The notes beneath the pieces are model-generated. The model saw nothing but the letters and a program-made list of their open reading frames with translations. It searched no databases and was not told where the DNA came from. A stretch of DNA of 64,000 nucleotides from Negativicutes bacterium (GTDB taxonomy: Bacteria; Bacillota; Negativicutes; UBA1444). Where the stretch lies: the NCBI GenBank assembly GCA_963665275.2, contig CAXXIN010000017.1, positions 32,001 to 96,000 of the forward strand, read 5' to 3'. Shown one piece after another: positions 14,181 to 32,324 of the stretch. The first letter of the stretch is position 1; each line of letters starts with the position of its first letter. Made by a program: the position numbers and the translations under genes.

Positions 14181-15860
14181 TTAGACTAACTCAGATCTCC
14201 GTTGGCAATCGCGCAGTCGTGGCGCCGAATCGACTAATAGGCGTGTATAGGGATGAGTAGGATTTGAAAATACCACACTCGACAACCCCATTTCCACAAT
14301 ACGCCCGTCTTTGAGCACAATAGCCCGGTCACTTATTTTACGCGCCAGGGCAATATCATGTGTGATAAATAGCAGCGCCAGTCCCCGCATATCCTGCAGC
14401 CGCATCAGCAACCTGACAACTCTCGCCTGTACTCCGGCGTCCAGCGCCGCCGTGATCTCATCGGCAATCAGCAGTTTCGGTTCCAGGATTAGGGCCCGTG
14501 CGATTGCGACTCGCTGCGCTTCGCCGCCACTAAGCTGATGGGGGTAACGACGCAGAAAAGCATCGGTGGCAGGCAGATCCACCTCGTTCAGGGCTCGCCG
14601 AACCTTCTCCTCCCGCTCTGCGTATGATCCCCGTTCATGAATGTCTAGCGGTTCCCTTACAATTTCACCGACACTCAATCTATGACTGAAAGCATCCTGT
14701 GGATTTTGAAACACGAGTTGAATCCGTTCATAAAACTGATGCCGTTCCCAGCCGTCTTTCCCATCAATCCGAAATGCTCCACCGTCCGCCGGCCACAATC
14801 CCATCAGCGTTTTAGCCAACGTCGTCTTGCCGGAGCCGCTCTCCCCGACAAGCGCCAAGGTTTCTCCTTCATACAGAGTCAGCGAAATATCTTCCAGAAT
14901 CGTCCGGCCCTCCAACTTTTTTTGCAAACCCGCGACTTCAAGCATCGGCACAATCCCGCTGCGGTGGCAAGCTATGGCGCGCCCATCCGATATGGTTTCC
15001 AGTGCCGGAACCTCCGTATCACACCTCGCAATCCGCTGGCTGCAGCGTGGATGAAATGCACAGCCGCCAACATTGCTCGCGGCATGCCCGGGAATGCACT
15101 GAAGATCTTTGAAGGTCGTCATATCGGGATATGCCCGCAGCAAAGCACGAGTATAGGGATGTTTCGGCGCATCGAACACTTCAGTGCTCGATCCCATCTC
15201 CACGATACGCCCGGAATACATGACCGCCACCGTATCCGCAACTGTCGCCGCCGTCGCCAGATCGTGAGTAATTAAGAGATTGGTCCGTCCTTTCAACGCC
15301 GTTCCCAATACTTGAAGAACCTGCGCTTTACTGAGCGGGTCCAACGAAGACGTCGGCTCATCCAAAATCAGCAATGAGGGTTCGTTCACCAGCGCCATCG
15401 CAAGTAATACCCGCTGCTGCTCACCGCCACTCAGCCGATGCGGGTGCAGTTCATGCCGCTCCACAGGCAGCCCCACTGCTATGAGCATCTCCACAGCCTT
15501 CTTCCCGGCCGTCTCCTTCGCCACCGGAAAGTGAACCGTCACGCTTTCTGCCACTTGATCGACTGCCGTGTACAGGGGATGCAGCACTTCTCCGCCATTC
15601 TGATGAACCATGGCTACACCCCGGCCTCGGATATCCCGCAGTTCTTTTTCGGTTAGGCTGAGTAAATCCTTGCCCTGCCAGTGCGCCGTCCCTGTCACCG
15701 TATCTCCGGCAAGTCGTAGCAAACTACGTCCCAGCGTCGTTTTTCCGGCGCCGGATTCGCCAATAACCGCAAGGGTCTCCCCTTGTTTGACCGTCAGGGA
15801 AATCCCGTGCAAAATCTCTTCCGTTCCATAGGCGACCTTTAAATTTTCAATCTGAAGCAT
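14181..15860 (-). CDS. Peptide/nickel ABC transporter, fused double ATP-binding subunit
   Basis: Two Walker A motifs (GESGAGKT, GESGSGKT), two LSGG, HPYT, and the Cys motif GCAFHPRC...C...ACH. Confidence 0.93.
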   Translation of the reverse strand: MLQIENLKVAYGTEEILHGISLTVKQGETLAVIGESGAGKTTLGRSLLRLAGDTVTGTAHWQGKDLLSLTEKELRDIRGRGVAMVHQNGGEVLHPLYTAVDQVAESVTVHFPVAKETAGKKAVEMLIAVGLPVERHELHPHRLSGGEQQRVLLAMALVNEPSLLILDEPTSSLDPLSKAQVLQVLGTALKGRTNLLITHDLATAATVADTVAVMYSGRIVEMGSSTEVFDAPKHPYTRALLRAYPDMTTFKDLQCIPGHAASNVGGCAFHPRCSQRIARCDTEVPALETISDGRAIACHRSGIVPMLEVAGLQKKLEGRTILEDISLTLYEGETLALVGESGSGKTTLAKTLMGLWPADGGAFRIDGKDGWERHQFYERIQLVFQNPQDAFSHRLSVGEIVREPLDIHERGSYAEREEKVRRALNEVDLPATDAFLRRYPHQLSGGEAQRVAIARALILEPKLLIADEITAALDAGVQARVVRLLMRLQDMRGLALLFITHDIALARKISDRAIVLKDGRIVEMGLSSVVFSNPTHPYTRLLVDSAPRLRDCQRRSELV

Positions 15861-16669
15861 GCGTTCCCTCCAGTCCTGTCCCTATCAGTGCAAACGCGAG
15901 CACCAGCGATGTCACGGCAATCCCAGGCGGAAGCAGCCACCAGCCCCATACGTCTAGATAGGTGAACGTCAACGCTTGCTGAATCATCCGACCCCAACTC
16001 TGCGCTGTCGGGTCGCTAATGCCGAGGAAAGCGAGCCCCGCCTCCAAAAAAAACGGCCCTCCGGGCGTCATGAATCATCGCCGCCGACAACACCGGGGCC
16101 AAATCCGGCAAAACATGCCGCCTGAGCAAGTACCAACGCCCCGCGCCAAAAGTGCGCGCAGCCGTCACCGGCCCGGATTCCCTGAGCAATAGCGTCTGGG
16201 ACCGCAGCAATCGTCCCGTTCCCGGCCAGAAGAAAAACGCAAGGATTCCAATCAAGGTGACCGACCCCGGTTGCAGATAGGCGGCAGCAAGCATCGCGGC
16301 CAGAATCGGCGGAATGACCAGTCCGACATCCATCATTCGGACAGTCACCCGCTCCACCCATCCGCCGAGAAATGTTCCACCCGCGCCGAGCAGCGCGCCG
16401 AGAAAAGCCGAAGTCAAGGCGGCCCCCATCGCCACCCCGAGAGAGGTCTTCGCTCCTGCCATGAGTTGGGATAGCAGATCCTGTCCCACATCATTCGTCC
16501 CAAGCCAATGAGTCGCCGATGGTGGCGAAAAAGCCGTCCCCACGTACGCATCCGGGGCATACGGCGTAACAAAAAAACCGGCCAGCGCAACCGCTGCCCA
16601 AAAACAAAAGAGATATAAGCCCAATCGTCCGGGTCCCGCTCTCAGCCTTTTTCCGTATTGGATATGCAT
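15847..16669 (-). CDS. Peptide/nickel ABC permease (OppC/NikC-like), split by a frameshift at the A-run ~16046-16053
   Basis: HWLGTNDVGQD, ARTFGA..RHVLP in one frame; EAGLAFLG..SWG..WW.LPPG in the next. Confidence 0.85.
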
Positions 16670-17634
16670 ACAGTCTTTACCCTCGGATCCAGAATAGGAT
16701 ACAGCAGTTCCGCCAAAAAATTTACAACCAGCACTGTCACTGAACTCAACAGCAAAATCCCCTGCAGCAGGGGATAATCCCTGGCGGCGAGCGCCCGTTG
16801 CAACAAGGTTCCCATGCCGGGGTAGCCAAAAACGACCTCGATCATCAAAATGCCTGCGAACAAATGGGACAGGTGCAATCCCGTCGACGTAGCTGCCGGC
16901 AGCAGCACGCTCCGCCCCAGATGACGATAACGAATGGCGCTCTCATCACACCCCTTGCTCCGGGCTGTGCGAAGGAACGGCGCCCGCAGCAAGCTGGCGG
17001 CAGAGTTGCGGCAAAGCAGGTACATAGTCGTCATCCGTGCCAAAACCAATGAGGCCAGCGGCAACATTAAATGCCGCAGCACATCCAGCCCCCAGGCCAT
17101 GCCCGATAACCCCCCGTACACTGTGACCGCTCCTCCGAGCGGAAACAGCGGCCAGATCACTGCAAAGCCCAATAACAACAGCGCACCGACAAAAAAATCC
17201 GGCACGCCGCCGATCAGCATCAATCCGACGAACAGTCCCTTATCCCAACGGCTTCCTTTGCGCGATCCACTTTCCAGTCCGAGAACAAAACCACCCACGC
17301 TGGAGAGTAGCAACGAGGCTCCTGCCAATAGGATCGTCCATGGTAAAAACCCCACCATGACTTTGACAACTGGCGCGTTGAAAAAATACGACCACCCAAG
17401 GTCCGCCTGCAGCAAAGATCCGATATAGGCGCTAAACTGCTCTGCCCAGGACTGGTCCAGCGCAAAACGCCGATAGATCTCCGCTTTCATTTCCGGCGTC
17501 ATCTGCAGTAACGCTTCTTCGCCATAAATGGCCAGAAAGGGGTCACCCGGCAGCAAGCGCGGCAAAACAAACCCCAATGAGCAGAGGATGAATAACGCGA
17601 TCAAATAATCCGCCAGCAGCTTGGAAACCCTCAT
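16642..17634 (-). CDS. Peptide/nickel ABC permease (OppB/NikB-like)
   Basis: LPGDP, DLGWS, TARSKG, EVVFGYPGMG, RDYPLLQG, LDPRV; start MRVSKLL at 17634 with GGAGG RBS. Confidence 0.9.
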   Translation of the reverse strand: MRVSKLLADYLIALFILCSLGFVLPRLLPGDPFLAIYGEEALLQMTPEMKAEIYRRFALDQSWAEQFSAYIGSLLQADLGWSYFFNAPVVKVMVGFLPWTILLAGASLLLSSVGGFVLGLESGSRKGSRWDKGLFVGLMLIGGVPDFFVGALLLLGFAVIWPLFPLGGAVTVYGGLSGMAWGLDVLRHLMLPLASLVLARMTTMYLLCRNSAASLLRAPFLRTARSKGCDESAIRYRHLGRSVLLPAATSTGLHLSHLFAGILMIEVVFGYPGMGTLLQRALAARDYPLLQGILLLSSVTVLVVNFLAELLYPILDPRVKTVCISNTEKG

Positions 17635-17653
17635 CCCATCCTCCTGACCGAAA

Positions 17654-18268
17654 CTACCAGCCCCGGTGGTACGGATCGGCGCAGGAAAGACAGACCTTCC
17701 GGCCCTCGACGAGGCGTATCCGCGGTTCCATCGTAACTTCGCCGCAGGCTTCACAGGCAATGGAGTCAAAAATCCTGGCCCGTTCCGGCATGGCATAAGT
17801 CGGTTTTTTGCAGTCAAACATTTCCTCATCCGCAACTGTCAGCATCTGATTCATCCGCTGGTTCTTCTGCGCTTCGAACTGTGCGTTTTCTTCCGGTGTG
17901 GCATTTCCCTGCATGACTTTTTTTCTCAGCGCGATACCCTCTGGCGTATTCGCCCCAACTTGCCCTTTATATACCAGCCGTACTGATTTTTGCGTATCCC
18001 GGCGGAAAATAGTGAACGCATGCTTACCCTGGTCGCGAAAAATCAGATTGCCTTTGCCAATCGTGCAGCCGAGCATCCACTGAATCGCATCCACGCCGCA
18101 AGCGTCGTTCTCCACAACCGCCACCAGTTCCTCGTCTTTGTCCCTGCGGATGTCCAGTTCCTTCGCAGCCAATTTCGCCGCCCGATAGCCGATGATCAAA
18201 CCGGGGCAGATATGTCCGTGAAACCGGACCACCTCTTTTAATTCTTCAGGAACTTCAAATTTTTCCAT
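17654..18268 (-). CDS. FmdE/FwdE-family protein with C-terminal zinc finger
   Basis: FHGHICPGLIIG, ENDACGVDAIQ..GCTIGKGNL, C-terminal CEACGE...CLSC. Confidence 0.9.
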   Translation of the reverse strand: MEKFEVPEELKEVVRFHGHICPGLIIGYRAAKLAAKELDIRRDKDEELVAVVENDACGVDAIQWMLGCTIGKGNLIFRDQGKHAFTIFRRDTQKSVRLVYKGQVGANTPEGIALRKKVMQGNATPEENAQFEAQKNQRMNQMLTVADEEMFDCKKPTYAMPERARIFDSIACEACGEVTMEPRIRLVEGRKVCLSCADPYHRGW

Positions 18269-18286
18269 AGTACTAGCCTCCTTCGA

Positions 18287-19915
18287 TTATTTTCCTTGAA
18301 TAAAAATCAGCTTGTTCTGCGGTATCGGCGCTCCGTTGCCGACGCCCTGAAAGGTGTACCACAAACGAACCTTGTCATTGAATGCCCAATAAGAACGAGG
18401 ATAGTACAGCGGCAGAAATGGCAAATCACGCGCCGCCAATTCCTGCACTTGATATACCCAGTTGCGACGAAGCGTTGGGTCCATTTCTGTGCGGCTCTTA
18501 CTCACTGCTTCTTTCCAGTCTTCGCCCCCTTGCCAGCGGGCGCCAAAGAATATCTCCCGCGTCAGCAGACGACTGAAGGCTTCGGGGTCGCAACCAAGTC
18601 CGCCGCTGCCGGTCAGCGCCAATTGAAATTGCCAGGACTCCTGGCGGCTGTCCACCGTTTTGGGGTCCATCACCCGCAGATCGACGGCAATTCCCTCTTT
18701 AGCCAATTGGTTCTTGATAAATTCGCCCTGTCGCTCTGACGGCGCACCGGTCATCGCCAGCCCGCCCGATCCTACGAGCAGCTCAAATTTCAGAGGCTGC
18801 CCCTCTTTAATCCATTGGCTGTTTTCTTTGCGATACCCCGCTTTGGCGAGCAGGGTTGCCGCCTGAACCGGATCATAAGAATATTTCCCCACAACTTGCG
18901 GATTGGCCCATGGGCTGACGGGTGGAGCCAGACCCGGACTCCCTGCCGCTCCATGACCACGCAGGGTAGTTTTTACCATCTCCGGTCGGTCAATCAGGAA
19001 AGCCAGCGCCTGACGAACTTCGACTTGATTCAGCGGAGCCTGTCGATGATTCATGAGCAGGACGGCGATCCAATCGCCTTCCTGAGAGATCAGGTGAAAG
19101 CCATCTTTTTTCAGCGGCTCCGCCATATCCGGCGGCACTTGCGCGGCATCCACTTCGCCGCGTTTGAGTGCAGCGACCGACATATCCCAGCTCAATTTGA
19201 TGAATCGCAGCTCTTTCACTCTCGCCTCACCCAGATAGTGCCCCGGCGCGGCAGTGAAGCGGTAAGTCCCGTGTTCTTTACTATATTCCGTTAAACGGTA
19301 TGGGCCGGTACCCACCACGGCCGCAGGGCCGGTAAACCTTTTGGGATCTGTCACGTCTTTCCAAATATGTTCCGGCAAAATAGGCACAGAGGAAGCGATG
19401 TAATCCAAAAATGGCGCGTATGGTTCAGTCAAGAAAATTTTTACCGTCGTGTCATCAACAGCTTCCGCCCGAATCACTTGCGGCGTCGAAATGTAGGGAT
19501 AGGGGTTCTTTTTGTAGTACTCAAAGGTAAATACTACATCCTTGGCGCTAAAGGGTGCGCCATCATGCCACTTCGCACCATTTTGCAACGTCATCTTCCA
19601 CGCTTTTTCGTTCGACAGCCATTCCCATGTTTTAGCAAGGCCGGGTCCGTATCCCGTTTCGTTTTTCCAAACCAATGTGTCAAACACAAGGGTCATACGG
19701 ATATAGCCGGGACCCCGGAGATAATGTCCGTAAGGATTGGGCAGCCCCCAGTCACCTGTCGTATCGGCGATGGTCATGATCCAGGAATCACTCTTGGACT
19801 GTGGCACAGCAGACTTCTTATCTGTTGCTGCCCCACCGCACCCTACAGCGAGCAGCAGTATAAGAGCCGTCACCCAAAGGTATAGTACGCGAATTTTATT
19901 TCCCCTGTCGTGCAT
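18287..19915 (-). CDS. Peptide/nickel ABC substrate-binding lipoprotein (family 5)
   Basis: Lipobox LAVGC, KWHDGAPFSAKDVVFTF, VGTGPY, VRQALAFLIDR. Confidence 0.92.
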   Translation of the reverse strand: MHDRGNKIRVLYLWVTALILLLAVGCGGAATDKKSAVPQSKSDSWIMTIADTTGDWGLPNPYGHYLRGPGYIRMTLVFDTLVWKNETGYGPGLAKTWEWLSNEKAWKMTLQNGAKWHDGAPFSAKDVVFTFEYYKKNPYPYISTPQVIRAEAVDDTTVKIFLTEPYAPFLDYIASSVPILPEHIWKDVTDPKRFTGPAAVVGTGPYRLTEYSKEHGTYRFTAAPGHYLGEARVKELRFIKLSWDMSVAALKRGEVDAAQVPPDMAEPLKKDGFHLISQEGDWIAVLLMNHRQAPLNQVEVRQALAFLIDRPEMVKTTLRGHGAAGSPGLAPPVSPWANPQVVGKYSYDPVQAATLLAKAGYRKENSQWIKEGQPLKFELLVGSGGLAMTGAPSERQGEFIKNQLAKEGIAVDLRVMDPKTVDSRQESWQFQLALTGSGGLGCDPEAFSRLLTREIFFGARWQGGEDWKEAVSKSRTEMDPTLRRNWVYQVQELAARDLPFLPLYYPRSYWAFNDKVRLWYTFQGVGNGAPIPQNKLIFIQGK

Positions 19916-19942
19916 GCAAAAACCTTCCCCCCTTCAGCATAG

Positions 19943-20050
19943 AAAAAAGCCATAAAGAAATAGGCTCCTAGTGAACCCGATAATCCTTCATGGCTTATCA
20001 CGTATTCTCTATTCCCTGCTTCAGCAAGGTCTGCGGTGCATCCCGCTTTA
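19943..20050 (-). promoter_or_regulatory. Structured 5' leader with intrinsic terminator (attenuator or orphan riboswitch candidate)
   Basis: Hairpins GCGG-gatgca-CCGC and CCTTGC-tgaa-GCAGGG, then a long stem aagccatgaagga...ttctttatggctt plus U run just before the RBS. Confidence 0.55.
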
Positions 20051-20054
20051 ATTA

Positions 20055-20083
20055 ATAATATAAGGTTGCAGCGGCGAAGTCAA
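20055..20083 (-). promoter_or_regulatory. SigmaA promoter for the ABC/FmdE operon
   Basis: TTGACT-17 nt-TATTAT on the minus strand. Confidence 0.6.
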
Positions 20084-20113
20084 TCGCGAAGGCAACACTT
20101 GGGCGATTCGGGA

Positions 20114-21073
20114 TTACAAATGAATCGAGTCTAACACGGCGCGAACTGTTTTGGCGCAATTCTTCATCTGGAGAATTTCAGTTTCCGGCAGTGGCAGGGG
20201 AAGCCTTTTTTCCACACCATTTTTACCAATAACACAAGGTATGCTCAGGGAGACCTTTTCATCAATCCCATATTCTCCATTCATCGTCACAGAAACCGGC
20301 CCTACAAAACGTTCGTCAAACAAAACGGCTTTAGCCAGTCGAACCGCCCCCATCGCGATCCCTGTATTCGTCCAGCCTTTTCCATTCAAAACATCATAAG
20401 CGACTTGAACGACTTGCTTGCCGATCGCAGCTCTGTCAATCGGGGAAGCGACTTCAAAGTAATCATCCAGTTGATCTGCAGGAACTCCACCGATATTTAC
20501 CATGCTCCAGGCGGGGAAGGCGGAGTTGCCGTGCTCACCCAGCATGAAGGCTTGCACACTGCCCGGCGCAACATTATAGCGGTCTGCAAGAATTCGCTTG
20601 AGTCGGGCGGTTTCCAGCGTCGTCCCCGTACCAAACAGTTTCCCTTGCGGATAGCCAAAATAATTGGCTGCATAATATGTCGTAATGTCCAGAGGATTGG
20701 TGATAAAAATGATTACAGCGTCTTGGGTGTATTGAACGATTTGACTCATAACCTCTTTAACCGTTTCAGCATTACGGCCCGCTAAGACAAGACGATCCAA
20801 ATTTTCACCGCGAAGAACGCTGGGGCCGGCGCACATAATGATTACCTTGGCGTCCGCGCAATCTTGGTAAGTTCCTTTATGAACATAAATATTCGCATTG
20901 TAGTCGAATGGCGTGGCATGATCAGCGTCCAAGGCTTCGCCCATGGCTTTTTCTTCGTCAATATCAATCAAAGCAATTTCTGAAGCGATTTGGTGAGCGA
21001 TGGCGGTAGACAGAACCTGTGAACCGACATGTCCCACTCCAATGATTACCAACTTATTTGATACTTGACTCAT
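20114..21073 (-). CDS. ldh: L-lactate dehydrogenase (LDH/MDH family)
   Basis: IIGVGHVG Rossmann motif, TNPLD, GTGTTLETARL, GEHGNS; substrate specificity not certain. Confidence 0.8.
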   Translation of the reverse strand: MSQVSNKLVIIGVGHVGSQVLSTAIAHQIASEIALIDIDEEKAMGEALDADHATPFDYNANIYVHKGTYQDCADAKVIIMCAGPSVLRGENLDRLVLAGRNAETVKEVMSQIVQYTQDAVIIFITNPLDITTYYAANYFGYPQGKLFGTGTTLETARLKRILADRYNVAPGSVQAFMLGEHGNSAFPAWSMVNIGGVPADQLDDYFEVASPIDRAAIGKQVVQVAYDVLNGKGWTNTGIAMGAVRLAKAVLFDERFVGPVSVTMNGEYGIDEKVSLSIPCVIGKNGVEKRLPLPLPETEILQMKNCAKTVRAVLDSIHL

Positions 21074-21233
21074 AAACATCCCTCCATGCATTCTAGGCAG
21101 ATCAGCCCTGTCATTGAGCTGTTTTCCAACAGTAACTATTACTATTAGTTCGCTTTTTAATATTATTCTTTCTCTTCCCTTAGGTCAACTGAAAACATAA
21201 ATTTTTCTACCCAACTCCTGTGTCAAGCCATCA

Positions 21234-21940: not shown

Positions 21941-22081
21941 TTATCCATCATTTCGTTCTTCCAGTTCTCCTTCAATCGACAAATAGCGTTTTTTCAATTC
22001 ATTCGCCACACCTTCATCCGGGCACCACATTCCACGTTTCACTGCCTCCAGCAATTTTTCCGCGATACGCTGCCTTGTCAA
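21941..22081 (-). pseudogene. 46-codon remnant of the CobN C-terminus
   Basis: LTRQRIAEKLLEAVKRGMWCPDEGVANELKKRYLSIEGELEERNDG* aligns with CobN end RRIAEKLLEAQQRGMWEAKENTLDELRKLYLSIEGELEERSDG. Confidence 0.85.
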
Positions 22082-23385
22082 CCATCATTACTCCGCCGCT
22101 GCTTCTCCGCCGCAAAATTATTCCACAGGCGTTCCAATAGATTGGCTGCGCCACGCAGACCCATGAAAGGCCTCCCCGTGAGAATCACTTCGTCGTAAAC
22201 CGGCAAGGCAATGTTGCAACACACAGTCCCTGCTATCGATTGTTGACGCAAAAATGCTTTTTCACTGCCGCTCCCCAACAACAGGCCACCTGATAAGTTT
22301 TTCAGGCGGTTCTCGATTTCTTTACTGCTTGCCGCTCCATCCAAGATCGAATCCACATAGGATGGCATAGGACCGGCCATTGGCCCGTCATGCGCCACTA
22401 CCGTCAGTGCTCCAATGTCCGCCCACTCCAACCGTAAAGCCCGCGCCAGTCCTATCGCCACGGATCCCGGCGCTGCGACAACCGCTTGCTCGAACCAAAG
22501 ATCACCCCAGAACCGTTCCATATCCGCAATTGCCGTCCGAAATTCCTGTTGCCTGGAATTCGCTTCTTTCCGAAGAAAATTGCCTGCGGCGACCGGGTTG
22601 GAAGGGACATGAATTTTCAGCGTATCAATCCACGATACGGTTTGTTCGATTCCATACGGCGGCAACAGGGACACATAAGGCATATCGTATTGCTTCTGCA
22701 GTTGGCGCGCCAGTTCGCCTCCCAGTTCTTCATGCACAACGAGATTGATCGCAGCTCGTCGCATGAAAGCCATCTCGCCAACCGACGATCCCAATCCCGG
22801 CGAAACATGCAGCCGGTATCCAGCCATCAATAGTACCCGCCGCAGTTCCTCCAGATCAGTCACCGCATTGTAATAGCCAACCGAAAGCCCCAATAAATTA
22901 ACGGCCCTGGGATCTATCGCCGAGCAAGAGGGTAACTCCAGCATTTCAAAATACTTTTGAGTCGCTGCGCGATAACCTTCCCAAAACCCGCCGACAAGAC
23001 CGCCGCCATCCATGCATACTACCGGGCAGCCCAAATTCGCCTGACGTGCAATTCCTGCCAAATCATCACCAATAAGCCCCACCGAGCAATTATTAATAAT
23101 GAGAATCACCGAAGGTGAACACTTCTCTTTCAGCGTGTCCAGCGTCTCCAGCAAACAAGCCTCTGTGCCATACACAACCGCCTCATTATCCGCCTGCGAA
23201 CAAAAGAAACGTTCAGGTAACGAGGGACACTGTTTTTCCAAATATCTGCGAGCGTAAAAAGAGCACCATAGAGGCCCGTTGACCACCACCGCCGCATCGG
23301 GAATTCCCGCAAAAAAAGCTGTAGCTCCTGTTAGAGCGCAAGCGCTTACTTGCGTGCAAGCGTTATCCCATTCCGACTTAGCCAT
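22078..23385 (-). CDS. Nitrogenase-like component 1 oxidoreductase subunit (second subunit)
   Basis: SACALTGA, NGPLWC, VVYGTE..L, NNCSVGLIGDDL, VNLLG, PYGIEQT..W, PFMGLRGA. Confidence 0.9.
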   Translation of the reverse strand: MAKSEWDNACTQVSACALTGATAFFAGIPDAAVVVNGPLWCSFYARRYLEKQCPSLPERFFCSQADNEAVVYGTEACLLETLDTLKEKCSPSVILIINNCSVGLIGDDLAGIARQANLGCPVVCMDGGGLVGGFWEGYRAATQKYFEMLELPSCSAIDPRAVNLLGLSVGYYNAVTDLEELRRVLLMAGYRLHVSPGLGSSVGEMAFMRRAAINLVVHEELGGELARQLQKQYDMPYVSLLPPYGIEQTVSWIDTLKIHVPSNPVAAGNFLRKEANSRQQEFRTAIADMERFWGDLWFEQAVVAAPGSVAIGLARALRLEWADIGALTVVAHDGPMAGPMPSYVDSILDGAASSKEIENRLKNLSGGLLLGSGSEKAFLRQQSIAGTVCCNIALPVYDEVILTGRPFMGLRGAANLLERLWNNFAAEKQRRSNDG

Positions 23386-24676
23386 AAATGATTCCTCCCC
23401 TGTTGCCCCGCCGCTCTGCCAAGCGCACCATTAATTCCAGCAAATAAACGACTCCCCGCACCCCGACCAAGGGCTGCATTGGCAATAATAATTGGGGTTT
23501 CAACGGCTCCTCCAGCTCATGGGTTGATATGATGAAATCGGCTCCGCGCATGACATCCGACGTTTCCGTCGAACCAAGGATCGGGGCAATCGTCTGCCGA
23601 GGCAATTGCTCTCGCAAAGCCGTTTGCTGAGTAGTTGTCAGCGAATCCTCCAACAACACCACGCCACTCAGTCTAGCGCCGGACAGTTCGATCAGCTCGA
23701 ATACCCACGCCGGATCGAACAGCAGCAGGGAGCGACCAATGCAAAAAACAAGTTTTTTCCCCTGTAACCGAAGCGTTACTATTTGTAGTTGCTCATTAAG
23801 TTCCAATGTTTGTTCATTGATCGCTTCTAGCGCTACTGTTTTTTGATTCAACTGTTCACCCATGGCGAATAGCCAATCTCTCGTCCGACTCCAGCCAACG
23901 GGGTAATCTTCTTTCAGCCAAGCAGTTCCGAACATAGTCTGCAAATCGCCTGCAAGTTTTTCCATCCATGGTCTGGCCTGTGGTGAACCGCCTACCGGAA
24001 TATTGATCGCAGCGGCCGGAACGAGTTGCATTTCTTCGATGGATGCATTCGCCGGAAACAAACTGAATTCTTCAAACCCGAAATAGCTCGACAAACGCTT
24101 AATTTCGATAATATCCCGGGTATTGTATCCACCGCGGTCTCCTAAAATCGTAATTCGTTTTTCTTGACGTGGCCGTGGTGTCATAAAGCGCTCCGCCAAT
24201 ATGCGGGCAGAGTGATAAAATCCGGCGTAAAAATCGCCATCCAAAAAACTGTGACAAGGAATTGAAAGAATCGGAACTTGCCAATCTTTCTCGGCCTGCG
24301 AGGCCATCGCATCGACATCGTCGCCAATCACACCCGCCACGCAGGAATTGGCAATGACCACATAGCGAGGATGATATTTTTCCACAACCCAATCAATGCA
24401 TTTGCGCAGTTGTTCACTGCCGCCAAAGATCGAATGTTCTTCCCGCAGTGCGCTGCACACCAGCGGCGCCGTGTATTGTCCCGGTGTAAAATAGTCACGC
24501 CCTATGGACCGGTACTGTATCCCCAAATCCATCTCATGGGTGACGTGGGCGCAGGATCGAGGGCTATGATAGATAACCGCGGCGCCCTCATTGCGCGAAA
24601 CTGCGCGCCAAACGCCGGACATACTGCAACTGTGGCTTTTGTTGCGCAACCGGATTGCCCGTCTACTCGATACCAT
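23378..24676 (-). CDS. Nitrogenase-like component 1 oxidoreductase subunit (first subunit)
   Basis: HSCSMSG, HSPRSCAH, SIFGGSEQL, NSCVAGVIGDDV, PVGWSRT..WL; no Cys at the NifD FeMoco-ligand position. Confidence 0.9.
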   Translation of the reverse strand: MVSSRRAIRLRNKSHSCSMSGVWRAVSRNEGAAVIYHSPRSCAHVTHEMDLGIQYRSIGRDYFTPGQYTAPLVCSALREEHSIFGGSEQLRKCIDWVVEKYHPRYVVIANSCVAGVIGDDVDAMASQAEKDWQVPILSIPCHSFLDGDFYAGFYHSARILAERFMTPRPRQEKRITILGDRGGYNTRDIIEIKRLSSYFGFEEFSLFPANASIEEMQLVPAAAINIPVGGSPQARPWMEKLAGDLQTMFGTAWLKEDYPVGWSRTRDWLFAMGEQLNQKTVALEAINEQTLELNEQLQIVTLRLQGKKLVFCIGRSLLLFDPAWVFELIELSGARLSGVVLLEDSLTTTQQTALREQLPRQTIAPILGSTETSDVMRGADFIISTHELEEPLKPQLLLPMQPLVGVRGVVYLLELMVRLAERRGNRGGIIYG

Positions 24677-25475
24677 AGTCCAGCACCAACTTTTCCAATT
24701 CATCAAAACTTAAGGGTGCCGGTATATTCAAAACCTCATTTTCCATAATGAAGCTTGCCAATTGGCGATATATCTGCGCCTGGTTGGCTTCAGCATTCCA
24801 CTGAATCACCGTTTGCTTATGAATCTCCGCCTGATGCACCACCTTGTCCCGAGGAATGAACGCAACCAACCGGGTATTCAGCCGAGATGCAAAATCGCTC
24901 AACAATTCCCGTTCATTATCGATAGCACGGCTGTTGCCGATGATTCCACCGATGCGCACTTTCCCCCGTCCCGCAAAACGGGCAATTCCTTTGGCAATAT
25001 TATTGGCTGCATACAGCGACATCAATTCACCGGAAGACACGATATATATCTCTGTCGCGTACCCTTCCCGAATCGGTACGGCAAACCCGCCGCATACCAC
25101 ATCGCCCAATACATCGTAAAGAACCAGCTTCTCATCGGTAATGACATTTAGTGCCCGCAGTTTTTCCAGCGCCACAATAATCCCGCGACCGGCGCAGCCC
25201 ACACCAGGTTCCGGCCCACCCGCCTCCACACATTGCACCCCATTGAATCCGTTATGCACGATTTGCTCGACAGTAATATCGTCGCCTTCAGCACGAACCG
25301 TATCCAGAACCGTATGCGGACACACCCTGCCAAGCAGCAGTCGGGTTGAATCGTTCTTGGGATCGCAACCGATTTGGCAGACCGGATATCCCTTCTCTGC
25401 CAGCGCTGCCGAAACATTAGCCGCTGTCGTCGATTTTCCAATCCCGCCCTTGCCATAAAACGCAATTTTCTTCAT
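24663..25475 (-). CDS. NifH-family iron protein (group IV, nitrogenase-like reductase component)
   Basis: YGKGGIGKSTT, GCDPKNDST, EAGGPEPGVGCAGRG, DVLGDVVCGGFAVPIREG. Confidence 0.95.
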   Translation of the reverse strand: MKKIAFYGKGGIGKSTTAANVSAALAEKGYPVCQIGCDPKNDSTRLLLGRVCPHTVLDTVRAEGDDITVEQIVHNGFNGVQCVEAGGPEPGVGCAGRGIIVALEKLRALNVITDEKLVLYDVLGDVVCGGFAVPIREGYATEIYIVSSGELMSLYAANNIAKGIARFAGRGKVRIGGIIGNSRAIDNERELLSDFASRLNTRLVAFIPRDKVVHQAEIHKQTVIQWNAEANQAQIYRQLASFIMENEVLNIPAPLSFDELEKLVLDYGIE

Positions 25476-25884
25476 GCCAAACTTATTCCTTTCTTCCCTA
25501 TCCCCTGAATTTATGGTTGAAATCAGCAGGTGCGCATTAGTCCGTATATAGGAATAACGACGAGTTAATTCCCGTCGCTGACAATCTTCCCTATTCTCTT
25601 CAATGTCGCCATCAGGTGCGCCATTTTATTTCGCCGCTGTCCAAATACGAAATTCCTTCCCCAGGGCTCATTATTTTTTCTTTAGGCTTGGGCTTGGAGG
25701 GATACGCCCTGCAGCGCTTATATCATCCCTCCGTTATTTCCCATTCACGGGAAAACTCCCAAGTTCCGCGGGGCAAATCATCGGTGAACGCGTCCACCAT
25801 CCGCAATTCATCCCGCCGAATTGCACGGGTGTATTCGACTGCGCTCCTGCTGCAGTATGATTTGACATTGAAAAGGCAATGGTT

Positions 25885-26223
25885 CTATGCCTGACTGATA
25901 ATTTGGACGCCAGCAACGCCAAACGCCTGCTTAAGCGGCGTAATGAAATTTCTCTCCAACAGAGACCGGTGGAACTCTTTATCGGTTACGATGCGCAAAA
26001 ACGCACCATCTCGGCGCATTCCGACCAATGTTTCAATGTACTTGCCGAAATCCTCTTCACCAATCAGCCCTTTCAGAGCTTCCAGTTCCGGTTGCAATTC
26101 CTGTCGGGCTGCCACCAGCCGGGAAGATAACGGAGTAAATGCTTCCATGTGCAGTCCCGGTGAATTCATGACCGACAAATTTTCTTCAAACTCTTCAGGT
26201 TGCATTTCGCGATGAAGTAACAT
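25885..26223 (-). CDS. Hypothetical protein
   Basis: ORF with AAGGAGG RBS before MLLHREM; directly follows the 93-aa ORF. Confidence 0.7.
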   Translation of the reverse strand: MLLHREMQPEEFEENLSVMNSPGLHMEAFTPLSSRLVAARQELQPELEALKGLIGEEDFGKYIETLVGMRRDGAFLRIVTDKEFHRSLLERNFITPLKQAFGVAGVQIISQA

Positions 26224-26257
26224 AACTCGACCTCCTTCGCACATAATTGAAGTGTTT

Positions 26258-26557: not shown

Positions 26558-27733
26558 CTATTTGATTTCAAATGGAGATATCCCTTCCATGCTCTGGGAC
26601 CGAACCTTGGCAAATTCGTCGATATACCGCTGCACCGCCATCGTGGCCGACAATCTTCCGCCAATCACATCGCTTTCCAATGTTTTACGGCAGGTAATGA
26701 TCTCCGGCGCGCGATAAAACAGATTATGCAAATGCTCCTCGACCATGGCGTACACCCAGGAAAGGGTCTGTTGTTTGCGGCGCTCCGCCAAAACGTCATT
26801 AGCCTGCCCCTGCGCCATGAATTTCATGATCACATCGTTCCACAATTCTTTGATCCCGTCGCCAGTCATCGCCGAGCAGGCAAACGCTTTCGTTTCCCAT
26901 TGATCGGTAGCCTGGCGGATAAAATATAAAATTCGTTCATATTCGGCGCGGGTGACTAGCGCTCTGCGCCGGTTGTCCCCATCGGCTTTGTTGACCACAA
27001 CGGCGTCGGCAAGTTCCATCACGCCTTTTTTCATGCCTTGCAGCTCATCGCCGGCCCCGGTAATGACAACAAGCAGGAAAAAATCGACCATGGATCGCAC
27101 GGTGGTTTCGCTTTGGCCGACCCCTACTGTTTCTACCAGGATTGTGTCATAACCGGCTGCTTCGCATAAAAGCAAAGTTTCCCGGCTTTTTCGCGTCAAT
27201 CCGCCCAAGGTTCCCCCTGACGGGGAGGGCCGGATGAACGCATTTTTTTCGCGCGACAGTTGTTCCATACGTGTTTTGTCGCCCAGGATACTACCTTTGG
27301 TGACAGTGCTGGACGGATCAACCGCCAGCACTGCTACCCGATGGCCACTTTGACACAGATAGGTTCCCATCGCTTCAATGAATGTACTTTTACCAGCACC
27401 AGGAAAACCGGTAATACCCACCCGAGTCGATTTTCCAGTGTAAGGCAAGAGCTTTTGAATGACTTGTTGCGCCACTTCAAAATGAGCCGCTGCATTACTT
27501 TCGACCAGCGTAATCGCCCGGGAAAGGATCATGCGGTCGCCGCCGAGCACGCCCGCAACATAATCCTCCACAGTCAATTTACGCCTTTTGATTACTGGAG
27601 CCGTATTTTTTATCGGCTCAGTCCGGCTATTCGGCATTCCATCATGGCCGCCATTGACGCCGCACATTACCCGGCACGCAAATTTATCGTCGTCATTTTT
27701 CGGCGCCCATTCCGGCTTGTAAATTTCAGTCAT
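26558..27733 (-). CDS. meaB: Methylmalonyl-CoA mutase-associated GTPase MeaB
   Basis: LSRAITLVES, GITGFPGAGKST, AVDPSS..GSILGDKTRM, ETVGVGQSE, GDELQGMKKG. Confidence 0.95.
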   Translation of the reverse strand: MTEIYKPEWAPKNDDDKFACRVMCGVNGGHDGMPNSRTEPIKNTAPVIKRRKLTVEDYVAGVLGGDRMILSRAITLVESNAAAHFEVAQQVIQKLLPYTGKSTRVGITGFPGAGKSTFIEAMGTYLCQSGHRVAVLAVDPSSTVTKGSILGDKTRMEQLSREKNAFIRPSPSGGTLGGLTRKSRETLLLCEAAGYDTILVETVGVGQSETTVRSMVDFFLLVVITGAGDELQGMKKGVMELADAVVVNKADGDNRRRALVTRAEYERILYFIRQATDQWETKAFACSAMTGDGIKELWNDVIMKFMAQGQANDVLAERRKQQTLSWVYAMVEEHLHNLFYRAPEIITCRKTLESDVIGGRLSATMAVQRYIDEFAKVRSQSMEGISPFEIK

Positions 27734-27737
27734 ATCA

Positions 27738-29927
27738 TTACTCCGCGAGTCTCTTGGACAATTCTTCAAGCACTTTCTTGGCGCAAACCGGAATGATGGT
27801 GCCAGGTCCAAAAATTGCCGCTGCGCCGTGTTCTTTGAGGAACGCGTAATCCTGCGCCGGAATAACGCCGCCGATCACGACCATGATATCTTCGCGACCG
27901 CGCTTCTTCAGTTCTTCGATCAACTGCGGCATCAACGTTTTATGACCGGCAGCAAGTGAACTCATCCCGACAATGTGCACGTCGTTGTCCACAGCATCCT
28001 GTGCCGCTTCTTCCGGTGTCTGGAACAAAGGACCGATATCAACGTCGTATCCCATATCCGCGAAAGCGGTCGCGATGACCTTCGCTCCGCGATCATGTCC
28101 ATCCTGGCCCCATTTTTGCGATCATGATACGAGGCCGGCGACCTTCGTGTTTTTCGAACTCATTCGCCAAGTCCCGCACTTCTTTGATGACGTCTTCATC
28201 TGCGAATTCACTGCTGTAAACGCCGGAAATAGAGCGAATGATCGCTTTATGACGACCGCAGACTTTCTCCACCGCATCGGAGATCTCGCCCTTGCTGGCG
28301 CGAGCCCGCGCTGCGTTAACAGCCAGTTCCAGCAAGTTGCCTTCGCCGGTTTCCATGGAATGAGTGATGGCATTCAACCAGTGTTCTACATCCTCTTGGT
28401 TTCGATTTGCGCGCAATTTTCGAAGTCGTTCGATTTGCGACAGCCGCACGGCGGTATTGTCGACTTCGAGAATATCCAGCGGATCTTCTTTTTCCAGCCG
28501 GTAATCATTCACGCCGACGATTTTTTCGGCGCCGGAATCGATATGAGCCTGCCGACGGGCGGAAGCTTCTTCGATTCTCATCTTCGGCAATCCGGTATCG
28601 ATGGCTTTGGACATACCGCCCAGCGCTTCGACTTCCTGTATATGCGCCCCAGGCGCTTCGGATCAGCTGGTTGGTCAGGGCTTCCACATAGTAGGAACCG
28701 CCCCAGGGATCGATGACTTTGCATACCTTGGTTTCATCCTGAATGTAGAGCTGCGTATTACGCGCAATACGGGCGGAAAAGTCGGTCGGCAAAGCGATCG
28801 CTTCATCCAGCGCGTTGGTATGCAATGACTGTGTGTGACCCAGCGCCGCCGCCATGGCTTCGACGCAGGTACGGGTAATGTTGTTGAACGGATCTTGCTC
28901 GGTCAGGCTCCAGCCGGAAGTCTGCGAGTGGGTACGCAGCGACATGGATTTTGTTTTCTTCGGGCCGAACGAATTGACGATTTTTGCCCAAAATCACGCG
29001 AGCGGCACGCATTTTTGCCACTTCCATGAAATAGTTTTTTCCAATCGCCCAGAAGAATGACAGCCGGGGAGCAAATTGGTCAATCTGCAGACCGTGTTCT
29101 GTACCGGTTCGCAGATATTCGAGACCGTCGGCCAACGTGTAGCCCAGCTCGATATCCGCAGTGGCTCCGGCTTCCTGCATGTGATAGCCGGAAATACTGA
29201 TGCTGTTGAATTTTGGCATATAGGCCGATGTATACTCGAAAATATCGCCGATGATACGCATGGAAGCAACGGGAGGATAAATATACGTATTTCGCACCAT
29301 GAACTCTTTCAGGATATCGTTCTGAATCGTACCGGCCATGATTTTTTTATCCACGCCCTGCTCTTCGCCCGCCAAAATATAGAAGGCCAGGATAGGAAGC
29401 ACTGCGCCGTTCATGGTCATTGACACCGACATTTGATCCAGTGGGATACCGGAGAACAGGATTTCCATGTCCAGGATCGAATCCACAGCCACGCCTGCCT
29501 TGCCAACATCGCCGACAACACGAGGATGATCGGAGTCATAACCCCTGTGAGTGGCAAGGTCAAAAGCGATGGACAGACCTTTTTGCCCGGCAGCCAGATT
29601 CCGGCGATAGAAAGCGTTACTTTCTTCGGCTGTGGAAAAGCCTGCATATTGACGGACCGTCCAAGGCTTCGTGACATACATCGTAGGATACGGCCCGCGC
29701 AGATACGGCGGCACACCCGCCATATACATCAAATGCTTGCAATCTTTGTAGGCTCTTTCGTCATACAACGGATCGAGGTTGATTTGCTCCATCGTCCGAA
29801 AAATATTTGCCTCGAACGATTTACCGGTTTCCCTTTCCAGATTGGCCTTCCATGCGTCATAACCTGATTGTCCGGGATTCGCCGCCTTGTGAAAGGGAAT
29901 TGCGCCAAAATCAGGAAATTTAGCCAT
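27738..29927 (-). CDS. mutB: Methylmalonyl-CoA mutase large (catalytic) subunit, about 3 single-base frameshifts
   Basis: [55 protein letters not shown](Q)[18 protein letters not shown] spread across consecutive frames. Confidence 0.92.
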
Positions 29928-29928
29928 C

Positions 29929-32097
29929 TTAGAACATCCCCCTTTCCTGCTGCATCTTGACCAAGGTTTCATTAGCAATTGGATCTGACGCTGATATAGT
30001 CGTCCATACCTGCTGCATCGCAGATTTCTTTTAGTTCTTTGGAAGGTGCGCCAGCCAGGAACACTTTCATTTTCGGCTTCTTTTCCTTGATGAGCTGGGT
30101 TACTGCCGGAGCCAGCTCGGGATATGTCGCATCCGTCGAGCAGACAATCGTGACATCAGCTCCCGAATTCATTGCGGCATCGACAGCTTCTTCCACCGTT
30201 GGGAAACCGTCGTTCGGCATGACTTCAAAATTCGCAACCTGCATAAAGGAAGTTACGAACTCCGCTCTGGCCTTATGCTGCGGAATCGGTCCCATGTTCG
30301 CCAGGAAAATCTTCACGTTTTCTCCTGTGCGAGCCTTAAACGCTTCGGTGCGTTGGCGCATTTCCTCATAGCGTTCCGTCCAACGATGCGGCAGTATGGG
30401 TTCAATCGTCAGCGCTGTCGCGTCGGTTGTCAGGGCGGCGGCAATTTCGCCCATAGTTGCGCCTGCCGTCATGGCCCATTTTGCTACATCAACAAGCACG
30501 CCAGCTTCGCTGCCGTCGCACTCATCCAGCGCTTTCAGCAAACCCTGCACCTGTTTTCCGTCTCGTTTTTTCGCATTCTCCGCCAAGGCTGCCATCCGCT
30601 GCGCTTTGATGGCGACGAAATCAATCGCAGGCACTTCCACCGGAACTTCGGTTACATTGGGATACATGTTGTTGCCAACGGCTCGGTCTGCACGGGTAGC
30701 CAGCTTTTTAAACCGATCATCCAGTACGGTTTTTACAGCCGCCTGAACTTTTTCCGTTTTCAAGGCAAGCGATAATCCCGCCCGCTTTTTCGATTTCCTG
30801 CATTTTCGCCCAGACTTTTTCCGCGAATTCATCAGTAAGTGATTCAATGTACCAAGAGCCACCGGCAGGATCGACCGGCTGCAAGAAGTTGAATTCGCTT
30901 TGCATCATGATTTGAATATTACGCGAGATTCGACGTGAAAATTCGTCGCTGGGGCGAATCACCGAATCAAAGGGTTTGACTGTCATGCCGTCGATCCCGC
31001 CCACCACTGCCGAAAACGACTGGGAAGCCGCCCGCAGCAGGTTGACATAGGGATCATAGGTTGTCTGGGTAAAGGAAGAGGTGCTGACAAACAAGTTGAT
31101 TTTTTTCGCCGCCTGATCTCCGCCAAACGCTTCGACCACTTGCGCCCAGATCATCTTGGCGGCGCGCAGTTTGGCGATTTCCATGAAGAAATTCGCGCCG
31201 ACGCTAAAATGGAAGCGAACATGCTGGGCGAAGCTATTGATATCGATATTTCGAAGTTGCATTGCTTTGATGTAAGTAATTGCCTCGCTCATCGCATACG
31301 CGACTTTCCTGCACATCATTGGCGCCACCGTTATGATAGGTATCCGCGTCAATCATTACGGTTCGGAGCTGTGGCGCATTCGCCCTGGCCCAGGCAATGC
31401 CATGCGCCATTTCATCGTAATACTCGTCCAAAGACCGCGGCAATTTCCCGTCAGCAACCAGCTCGCCAATCGGGTCCATGGTCACTGCACCCTGCAAGTT
31501 TTTTGTCCCAACACCACGTTTCTCCGCCAGCGCTGCAATATTGCCCAGCATCGCGACATTGGAAGCTCCTGCGTGCAGAGCCATTTCATGCTTATCCAGT
31601 TCAATGCCGTCCAATACGGTTTCCAGATCGGACAACGTAGAGAGTGATGCGCCCTGTTTTGCAAACTCGTCATCCGGGGCGTCCTGCACGTCCAGCCCCT
31701 TCATCGTTGCTTTATCCAAACGGAAACTGACAGCGGTCGTACCTTTTAGCAATTCTCGTTTTTCGACCGCATTTGCATCCGCCGGGGTCATGGAATCGCT
31801 TTGTTGGGCGATAGTCCACGGCTTGGACATATACCCTCCCGCATGGAACGCCACGCAAGTTGCTTTCGAGGCCGGGATACGTTTTGCAGTGGGTCAATTT
31901 TTCCGTATCCCGACATGATGTAAATCGGCTTTAACGTAATCCCCTCGTATGTCTTGGTAAACATACTTTTTTCGAAATCGGCGCCCTTGAGGGCCAGAAA
32001 TCGTTTCTTCCTTCCATGTATCATATGAAGTGGGTTCGAATTCGTCGAAGCTAATCTCCGGGAATTCTTTTTCGCCCAACTCTTTCTCTTGTTCCAT
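29929..32097 (-). CDS. mutA: Methylmalonyl-CoA mutase small subunit, several frameshifts
   Basis: [56 protein letters not shown]-like [17 protein letters not shown]. Confidence 0.88.
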
Positions 32098-32262
32098 ATA
32101 GTTAGCCTCTCTCTTTTCAAAAGTTGTAGTTTTGAAAAACAACTATTCGCTTAAAAATTCTCCCAATCGCTTGGTTCAACAGAGTTTACATCCCCCCAAT
32201 CTTCCTTTTCAGACTTTCTACTTGATATTTATGTGGAAAATGGCTTGGATTAACTCATCTCA

Positions 32263-32296
32263 GGTCTGTAACAGACCAATATCGTATAGATGTCAA
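32263..32296 (-). promoter_or_regulatory. Putative mutAB promoter region with palindromic operator
   Basis: TTGACA at 32296-32291 and palindrome GGTCTGT-N-ACAGACC at 32263-32277; -10 element not clearly identified. Confidence 0.45.
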
Positions 32297-32324
32297 TTTC
32301 CACCTCAAATCTTCATCCTGAAGC

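Follow-up and report, generated by a model that had tools for sequence, protein, structure and literature searches.

A nitrogenase-like nflHDK operon of Negativicutes in the setting of cobalamin riboswitches and cobN-type chelatase genes, with a candidate role in tetrapyrrole reduction

The nflHDK operon

The stretch of DNA analysed here, called the window below, comprises 64,000 nucleotides (nt) from a Negativicutes bacterium of the lineage UBA1444 (GenBank assembly GCA_963665275.2, contig CAXXIN010000017.1, positions 32,001 to 96,000). Its minus strand carries three overlapping nitrogenase-like genes, nflH, nflD and nflK, whose relatives in other Negativicutes lie among genes of vitamin B12 metabolism. 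The first gene, nflH (24663-25475, minus strand), encodes 270 amino acids (aa) and a predicted NifH-like ATPase acting as [4Fe-4S] electron donor; the protein matches PF00142 (Fer4_NifH) with 360 bits, is 60% identical to the NifH of the same genome and keeps the P-loop and both cluster cysteine motifs. The two genes behind it encode component-1 subunits. The open reading frame (ORF) of the D-like subunit spans 23378-24706 and 442 aa in full, and an alignment with 72 homologues places its start at Met11 (ATG at 24676), which leaves a protein of 432 aa encoded by 23378-24676 (minus strand) that matches PF00148 (Oxidored_nitro) with 161 bits. The K-like subunit, of 435 aa, is encoded by 22078-23385 (minus strand) and matches PF00148 with 175 bits. 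With the start at Met11, the H and D genes overlap by 14 nt and the D and K genes by 8 nt, and all three are read as translationally coupled. All three frames are intact in the assembly, and the protein atlas clusters matched by the component-1 proteins are of PF00148 only.

A preliminary description, made from the sequence alone, had placed three overlapping genes at 22078 to 25475 with no nifB, nifE or nifN nearby. The frames coincide exactly with these limits and their Pfam families are those of NifH and, twice, of Oxidored_nitro; the rest of the 64-kb window contains neither another PF00148 gene nor a NifB-type gene. The true nifHDKENB set of the source genome is located on a separate contig.

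Cluster ligands

Homologues were collected from one genome per species, giving 149 loci (labelled L001 on), of which the best 80 were examined; ligand residues were counted in the 73 D-like and 80 K-like proteins of these 80 loci. In the numbering of the full D-like ORF, cysteines C27, C52 and C122 are kept in 72/73, 73/73 and 73/73 proteins, and C16, C41 and C100 of the K-like subunit in 80/80. The cysteine sets already picked out in the preliminary description (SC..RSC..NSC in D, AC..LWC..NNC in K) are therefore the six conserved cysteines of the family. Judged by their motifs (xxCAxxG, HxPxxC and xxCxxGxIGDD), they correspond to C62, C88 and C154 of NifD and C70, C95 and C153 of NifK. An extra cysteine two residues before C27, forming 'CxC', occurs in 61 of the 73 D-like proteins, with histidine at position 25 in the window and in its nearest relative (L007), and a further cysteine, C10, is present in 69 of the 80 K-like proteins.

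The ligands of the iron-molybdenum cofactor (FeMo-co) were compared in a MAFFT alignment of 15 family D proteins with the NifD and NifE of the source genome, two AnfD-type proteins and four other group IV D proteins. At the position of NifD Cys275 all eight comparison proteins have cysteine and none of the 15 family members does; these have G, S, A or another residue instead. The loop bearing His442 is deleted from the family. The earlier statement that no NifD-type FeMo-co ligand motif is present is thus borne out for both NifD ligands, with the reservation that H396, the histidine of a 'TTHE' motif (His in 58/73 and Asp in 11/73), lines up with His429 of MarD, both in the MAFFT alignment and in a non-significant HMMER stretch. 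Statements from the literature, here and below, refer to the accessible portions of the papers cited. MarD Cys270 and His429 hold the [Fe8S9C] cluster of the nitrogenase-like enzyme MAR (PMC12552129). MarD Cys270 occupies the same column as NifD Cys275, without cysteine in 15/15 family D proteins. As H396 is aligned with MarD His429, the cofactor pocket may not be wholly free of ligands.

A NifB-type gene was not found in Phascolarctobacterium faecium (G001), one of the carriers of nfl genes, where the nifB model gives no more than a 24-bit match, confined to its C-terminal part. Because no NifB is linked to the family, P. faecium lacks one, and both Cys275 and the His442 loop are gone, a FeMo-co or L-cluster is unlikely in these proteins.

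Placement among nitrogenase-like proteins

All NCBIfam equivalog models fall far below their cut-offs with the D-like and K-like proteins: nifD scores 74 (cut-off 654), nifK 28-33 (427), nifN 25 (327) and the CfbD model TIGR03282 35 (268). The nifE model, with 85 and 95 bits against a cut-off of 505, is the best NCBIfam match of both subunits. All models of DPOR (BchLNB/ChlLNB) and COR (BchXYZ), the group V enzymes, are likewise below cut-off (BchN 44 and 25 versus 420; BchB 57 and 83 versus 490; BchZ 60 versus 529; BchL 217 versus 345). NflH is only slightly short of two cut-offs, those of nifH (TIGR01287, 382 versus 394) and CfbC (NF033200, 376 versus 402), and its best PDB matches are NifH proteins (300-327 bits), with MarH at 275 and BchL at 163. 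Against PDB, the D-like protein reaches 66 bits with MarD (9FMG/9D9U) and with a NifD, and 62 with a NifEN fusion; the K-like protein matches the NifEN fusion 9i0g best, then 9d9u_C and BchB, all at 52-68 bits. 9FMG is the MarDK2H2 complex of R. rubrum and 9d9u the MAR complex of the same organism, whose chain C we take to be MarK from its length of 466 aa and its K-type match. A confident AlphaFold2 model of the D-like subunit (pLDDT 86.8) has MarD (9fmg_A) as its nearest fold (TM-score 0.68, 20% identity), followed by NifD and NifE, with identities of 16-20% overall.

The phylogeny of 70 proteins was estimated in a short IQ-TREE search under LG+G4, with SH-aLRT as the only measure of support. 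The tree contained 15 family D and 16 family K proteins, picked from loci spanning the taxa, one lone K-like protein, the NifD, NifK, NifE and NifN of the source genome, two AnfDK-type pairs and 15 other group IV pairs from Negativicutes. Family D forms one clade (SH-aLRT 100, stem 1.16) and family K another (SH-aLRT 100, stem 1.24), both separate from the Nif, Anf and NifEN clades as well as from the clade of the other group IV pairs, some of which are MAR-like. The preliminary description had asked for a phylogeny, and the family does not fall inside a Nif/Anf/NifEN or MAR-like clade. Its label of 'group IV' is not established by this tree, where the family lies outside the clade of the 15 Negativicute group IV pairs, groups IV-A, IV-B, IV-D, IV-E, IV-F, V and VI being outside the reference set. 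The mismatch seen earlier with CfbD and DPOR agrees with the two distinct subunits and with the low scores of the CfbD and Bch models. HMM cut-offs, PDB scores and the tree together support the view of an uncharacterised system outside Nif, NifEN, MAR, CfbCD and DPOR/COR, and D and K each form a separate clade of nitrogenase-like proteins, with no assignment to the published groups compared.

The nearest solved relative, MarHDK (group IV-C, R. rubrum, 9FMG), shares with NflHDK a NifH-like reductase, a D/K heteromer and six P-cluster cysteines, as well as the D fold, and H396 may correspond to MarD His429. It differs in sequence (about 20% identity, 66 bits, a separate clade) and in having MarD Cys270; nfl has neither this cysteine nor a linked MarB or NifB, and its context is B12 scavenging, whereas that of MAR is sulfur metabolism. 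These likenesses raise the possibility that NflHDK is a C-S bond reductase like MAR or ISR, serving sulfur acquisition. The setting of most group IV systems beside sulfur metabolism genes (PMC13474568; 2026 mBio paper) agrees with this. Groups IV-A (Nfa), IV-D and IV-E, too, are nearly all reported beside such genes, the tested clusters being nflBHDK sets; together with the position of the family outside the clade of the 15 group IV pairs, this may tell indirectly against its membership in them. Against a C-S reductase, MarD 9FMG matches the D proteins of three further group IV pairs from Negativicutes with 200, 356 and 492 bits, and the D-like protein of the family with 66; MarD Cys270 is missing, no marB is linked, and the representatives of the 24 most widespread neighbour clusters in the 80 loci include no cysteine or methionine synthase. 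MAR activity has moreover been detected in group IV-C alone (PMC13753814), and a C-S reductase is considered very improbable. ISR (group IV-F) differs from nfl, by the description in the review, in divergent cysteine positions and a context of sulfonate and radical S-adenosylmethionine (SAM) genes; nfl has 6/6 cysteines and is linked to B12 (PMC13474568). In one related genome (L125 and L126; G022 contig C9, 77-125 kb), a dozen D/K pairs are crowded into some 48 kb, and MAR-like pairs, with 492 bits to 9FMG, are among them.

The nifE scores and the NifEN fusion at the top of the K-like protein's PDB matches would also suit a NifEN-like scaffold or maturase that builds or carries a metal cluster or metal for another enzyme, with the linked transporters supplying the metal. 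A coupling of transport to cofactor assembly has been proposed for NifEN-like genes linked to ABC transporters (Dos Santos et al. 2012, PMC3464626). The 'yellow' NifEN-like lineages of that study resemble the present family in their 3+3 cysteines, in the absence of both FeMo-co ligands and in nitrogenase-like genes beside ABC transporters; the accessible text proposes no function, B12 link or CobN link for them. Against a scaffold role, the NifE/NifD cluster cysteine column is without cysteine in 15/15 family D proteins, whereas the NifE of the source genome keeps it; no NifB is linked and P. faecium has no NifB-type radical SAM protein; and the linked importers are of the siderophore, haem or B12 type rather than metal-ion pumps. 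Such a role is therefore improbable, if somewhat less so than that of a C-S reductase.

Group VI (Elusimicrobia, Gracilibacteria, Myxococcales; Meheust et al. 2020) offers a further comparison: it too lacks Cys275, His442 and NifB, has radical SAM neighbours and is predicted to act on a tetrapyrrole. By its description, to which the comparison is confined, it differs in the identity of its H protein to NifH (about 40%, against 60% here), in at most 4/6 P-cluster cysteines (6/6 here) and in its taxa, and the accessible text reports no link with CobN or a riboswitch.

Distribution and gene neighbourhood

The 80 loci are found almost exclusively in Negativicutes, with Pelotomaculum propionicicum and a few bins under other labels besides. 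Named carriers include Sporomusa, Pelosinus, Anaerospora, Phascolarctobacterium, Succiniclasticum, Schwartzia, Pectinatus and Megamonas; the clade is common in propionate-forming Negativicutes of gut and rumen (Phascolarctobacterium, Succiniclasticum, Schwartzia) and occurs also in Sporomusa and Pelosinus. nflH is present in 65/80 loci. Of the 15 others, eight are on contigs with less than 2.5 kb before the first nfl gene and seven have at least 5.9 kb upstream.

For the neighbourhood analysis the ORFs of the 80 loci were clustered, and representatives of the 24 most widespread clusters were annotated. In the usual order, nflH-nflD-nflK, in some loci preceded by a divergent MerR gene, are followed by genes for a BtuF-like binding protein and a FecCD permease, by cobN and by a SPASM-type radical SAM gene; chlI-chlD, a CN-hydrolase gene or cbiZ come next, often with a TonB-dependent receptor gene. 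Counted over the 58 loci whose DNA extends 6 kb or more past nflK, FecCD is found in 39, CobN in 37, the SPASM radical SAM protein in 33 and the BtuF-like protein in 32. Homologues anywhere in the 80 loci number 39 for cobN and 33, in 33 loci, for the radical SAM gene; CbiZ occurs in 18 loci and a TIM barrel of the AP-endonuclease-2 type in 15; nine loci have CbiK and nine BtuR. This TIM-barrel superfamily is also that of the cobamide-remodelling enzyme CbiR (PMC7733943), so that the protein of the 15 loci may be called CbiR-like at superfamily level. The linked radical SAM protein was considered as a NifB or MarB and rejected, being of the SPASM type and matching PapB, AhbC, AhbD and NirJ-like models; the second radical SAM protein of the window is HemN/HutW-like. 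Lone K-like genes with no nflH or nflD partner (L057:9995-11323, L133:3023-4351 and L040:10671 onward) sit behind their own cobalamin riboswitch, between BtuR and TonB-dependent receptor genes.

Co-occurrence was examined in 31 genomes, comprising the source genome (G000) and 30 relatives (G001 on). NflD is found in 3/11 same-genus genomes and in 4/19 genomes outside the genus, and this patchiness marks it as an accessory trait. The 8/31 genomes with NflD have both CobN and the radical SAM protein in 8/8 cases, while among the 23/31 without NflD each of the two is found in only 3; as the genomes are kin, this is given as a pattern with no statistical test.

Control by cobalamin riboswitches

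Rfam identifies a cobalamin riboswitch directly upstream of nflH in L011 (two copies), L015 and L029; in L020 it precedes cbiK-nflH. An nhmmer profile built from 15 Rfam-confirmed riboswitches was used to score the 60 loci that have 1.5 kb or more of upstream DNA: a riboswitch lies within 2.6 kb upstream in 19/60 (4 of these 19 confirmed by Rfam), a divergent MerR gene in 22/60, and one or the other in 41/60. The nfl family belongs to the cobalamin regulon of Negativicutes. The nfl genes are set in a specific context, that of switching by a B12 sensor and of nesting in CobN, radical SAM and importer modules.

A B12-repressed operon of CobN, ChlID and CbiZ was already known. Operon-2 of Dehalobacter restrictus, which unites CobN/ChlID, a BtuFCD-like importer and CbiZ under a cobalamin riboswitch, is the closest likeness; the transcript of its CobN/ChlID/CbiZ operon rises 346-fold on corrinoid starvation, and the accessible text mentions no nitrogenase-like genes in it (Rupakula et al. 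2015, PMC4285132).

Predicted function

The combination of a NifH-type ATPase, a predicted interface cluster and empty pocket and a context of chelatases, importers and riboswitches makes ATP-driven tetrapyrrole reduction the most economical reading. nflHDK would accordingly encode an enzyme that spends ATP to reduce a corrinoid, or another tetrapyrrole, obtained by scavenging, a reading to which we give a probability of about 0.55, with reduction of the ring preferred over that of the cobalt centre at about 60:40. A tetrapyrrole had been suggested as substrate in the preliminary description, and this idea gains from the riboswitch-controlled operons and from the presence of putative CobN, SPASM radical SAM, BtuFCD-like, CbiZ, CbiK and BtuR proteins. 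Two different component-1 subunits beside a NifH-like ATPase also fit the heteromer assumed there.

In the proposed mechanism, an NflH dimer with its [4Fe-4S] cluster and MgATP would dock on an NflD-NflK heteromer and pass low-potential electrons to a P-cluster-type Fe-S cluster, held on three cysteines of each subunit. No FeMo-co or L-cluster would be built in, Cys275 and the His442 loop being lost and NifB unlinked, so that the P-cluster-type cluster would itself reduce an organic substrate bound in the vacated cofactor site of NflD, the way DPOR, COR and CfbCD work. This substrate would be a corrinoid or other tetrapyrrole handled by CobN/ChlI/ChlD, the SPASM radical SAM protein and BtuFCD-like import, with Nfl as an optional addition. 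The enzyme would then be a natural case of a P-cluster-type site working without a catalytic metallocofactor.

Paralogs in groups IV and V each reduce a C=C bond of a tetrapyrrole (Meheust et al. 2020, bioRxiv 10.1101/765248): DPOR and COR act in chlorophyll synthesis and CfbCD carries out a 6-electron reduction (2026 review, PMC13474568). CfbCD (group IV-B) is probably the closest functional analogue, as an ATP-driven tetrapyrrole reductase in a pathway that contains a chelatase, and NflH comes near the CfbC model, as noted above. It differs in that its catalytic component, CfbD, consists of one subunit and carries a [4Fe-4S] cluster (PMC13474568), whereas nfl has two subunits with 3+3 cysteines. 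DPOR and COR would resemble NflDK in a heteromeric N/B-type component without a heterometal cofactor and with a tetrapyrrole in its pocket. They sit in a set with the class I chelatase BchHID and the radical SAM protein BchE. Differences are that NflH is nearer to NifH than to BchL by PDB score, and that the B subunit of DPOR supplies an aspartate and has no three-cysteine set (PMC13474568).

Several observations weigh against tetrapyrrole reduction or against B12 as its setting. Gene linkage does not discriminate between corrinoids, haem and other tetrapyrroles. Both a riboswitch and a divergent MerR gene are missing from 19/60 loci, and in a rumen group (L039, L052-L055, L059, L077) nfl is without any B12-linked neighbour. 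The CobN-radical SAM pair occurs as adjacent genes without Nfl in G015 and G027, so that Nfl looks like an optional and dispensable addition to it. In the window itself, nflK is followed by an L-lactate dehydrogenase (L-LDH)-like gene and then by a NikA/Opp-type ABC transporter with FmdE, not by cobN. Rfam finds no cobalamin riboswitch up to E=1 in the 409 nt before nflH (25476-25884); control by B12 would here have to rest on read-through from about 7 kb upstream, and for this copy we only infer it. As to the active site, the alignment of H396 with MarD His429 leaves room for a metallocofactor that may be bound, and the six cysteines would suit an 8Fe P-cluster, whereas the solved tetrapyrrole enzymes DPOR and CfbD have [4Fe-4S] clusters and COR is implicated in the same (PMC13474568).

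A minority branch of the tetrapyrrole reading, treated separately because its product differs, is a cobalt-centred reductase, in which ATP would drive a Co(III) or Co(II) corrinoid to Co(I) for BtuR or CobN and leave the ring untouched. Co(II)/Co(I) is a couple of very low potential. BtuR/CobA adjoins the nfl genes in L013, L014, L016, L023, L040 and L057, and nflHDK follows mcm-meaB, the client of adenosylcobalamin and its loader, in the window and in L007, L021 and L080. That Nfl is optional for the CobN-radical SAM module is what would be expected of an auxiliary reductant, and the CobN relative HmuS needs NADH and a membrane fraction for haem dechelation (PMC12583661). On the other side, action on a metal centre is not known of any nitrogenase-like enzyme, the large D/K catalytic component seems excessive for such a task, and BtuR occurs in only 9/80 loci. 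A cobalt-centred reaction is hence thought rather unlikely, while being the strongest of the alternatives.

Reduction of the tetrapyrrole may also be one step of something larger. Tentatively, and with the odds on the lower side, NflHDK, CobN/ChlI/ChlD and the SPASM radical SAM protein could form an undescribed pathway, induced by B12 starvation, that converts an unusable tetrapyrrole to a usable corrinoid. Its input would be, for example, a corrinoid that is foreign, oxidised or carries a different metal, or an intermediate from an earlier stage of the ring, and its steps uptake, re-metallation, trimming and reduction. If this were true, NflDK would be the fourth known nitrogenase-like enzyme to reduce a tetrapyrrole and the first in vitamin B12 metabolism.

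Most nitrogenase-like clades are without a known reaction. A 2026 review (PMC13474568), which with a 2026 mBio paper lists groups IV-A to IV-F, V and VI and ties the group IV clades with no assigned function to sulfur genes and nflB, finds gene context of 'little help' beyond the sulfur links of group IV and the tetrapyrrole links of group VI. In its accessible text, B12 and chelatases are treated for the F430 and chlorophyll pathways, a link of nitrogenase-like proteins with B12 is absent, and the words 'corrinoid' and 'riboswitch' do not appear; 'cobalamin' is likewise absent from the accessible text of the mBio paper. No paper linking nitrogenase-like genes to B12 riboswitches or CobN was found in the literature within reach, which excluded subscription journals and supplements. 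NifEN-like lineages with 3+3 cysteines were known before; what is new is the B12-linked genomic context of a nitrogenase-like family. This context makes the function of an orphan enzyme testable and bears on the competition of gut anaerobes for B12.

B12-linked genes of the window and the source genome

The window holds five cobalamin riboswitches (RF00174), all on the minus strand like the genes described with them. Two stand in tandem upstream of nflHDK: the first (32435-32620, 112.8 bits, terminator hairpin 32367-32331) heads mcm-meaB-(nflHDK), and the second (33193-33375, 111.8 bits, terminator hairpin 33111-33084) has in addition a promoter-like site, 33424-33396. Between them and nflH lie two genes for methylmalonyl-CoA mutase subunits (27741-32115), meaB (26558-27811), the G-protein chaperone of this B12-dependent mutase (PF03308, 351 bits; 97.6% identical to the L007 copy), and two small ORFs, and L007 has the same order. 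The order mcm-meaB-nfl recurs in L021 and L080, and a riboswitch before mcm in L007 and L021; one has also been described before mcm in Veillonella (PMC7160235). One of the small ORFs (25885-26244) belongs to no Pfam or NCBIfam family and has homologues in four other loci, standing one to two genes upstream of nflH in L007, L065 and L080.

The two mutase genes are frameshifted in the assembly, with five frame changes by tblastn with the L007 proteins as query. Contigs of three public runs (two studies) agree, and lack single bases present in the window at 12 listed places within 29972-33068 and at 11 more. That the mcm genes are pseudogenes was rejected, these contigs pointing to assembly indels; the frame breaks are most likely 1-nt insertion errors of the assembly.

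The CobN, ChlID and radical SAM genes are located 11-23 kb upstream of nflHDK. A riboswitch at 40417-40600 (114.6 bits) heads a SPASM-type radical SAM gene (39223-40401), chlI (38182-39210) and chlD (36487-38169). The radical SAM protein was recognised by Pfam Radical_SAM, with PapB, AhbC, AhbD and NirJ-type models as its best NCBIfam matches, below cut-off, and its family is the one that follows cobN in the nfl operons. ChlI and ChlD, AAA+ chelatase motor subunits assigned by Pfam with TIGR02442, TIGR02031 and TIGR02030 below cut-off, fall in the same BLAST clusters as the ChlI and ChlD beside nfl elsewhere. The cobN-type gene (44790-48524) encodes the large subunit of a class I chelatase, of 1244 aa (TIGR02257, 992 bits versus a cut-off of 822). 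A cbiK-type chelatase gene (41869-42822; PF06180, 330 bits over residues 37-300) lies behind a riboswitch at 43033-43214 (108.7 bits); the 36-residue N-terminal extension before its Pfam domain suggests an exported, periplasmic CbiK. Farther upstream, a B12-controlled uptake module with an ECF-type part (48843-58744) begins with a riboswitch at 58562-58744 (101.2 bits) and comprises, by Pfam, genes for a TonB-dependent receptor, ExbB, ExbD, TonB, a 601-aa protein, a double ABC ATPase, CbiQ and a beta-propeller protein. The genes for the 601-aa protein, the ATPase, CbiQ and the propeller stand directly after nflK in L024.

The source assembly (20 contigs, 92.6% complete) has HemB, a SUMT-like methylase, a BtuR-like gene, MCM/MeaB and at least five cobalamin riboswitches, the number in the window alone. 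Searches of it by tblastn with queries from S. ovata found no CbiD, E, T, G, H, J, C or A and no CobU or CobQ; Pfam found no CbiJ, CbiD or CobS, and single queries found no CbiZ, BtuF-like or FecCD protein. Since the cbi genes cluster and the assembly is 92.6% complete, their absence could stem from one missing contig; the strain is either a cobamide auxotroph or short of one contig in its assembly. The lack of CbiJ and CbiD, together with B12 riboswitch control, would suit a non-orthologous replacement for the reductive step of anaerobic de novo B12 synthesis, for example that of CbiJ. The carriers P. faecium, P. succinatutens, S. ovata and Succiniclasticum ruminis, however, have both CbiJ and CbiD, and in the genus Nfl is found in 3/11 other genomes against 10/11 for CbiD. 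Co-occurrence with CbiJ and CbiD in the four carriers led to rejection of this substitute role, the least probable of those considered.

Downstream of nflK, the region 14181-21091 contains the L-LDH-like gene followed by genes for a NikA/Opp-type binding protein, FmdE with a DksA/TraR zinc finger, two permeases and a double ATPase. The transporter may be an importer of nickel or cobalt, and a NikA/Opp-type transporter is found also upstream of nfl in L020.

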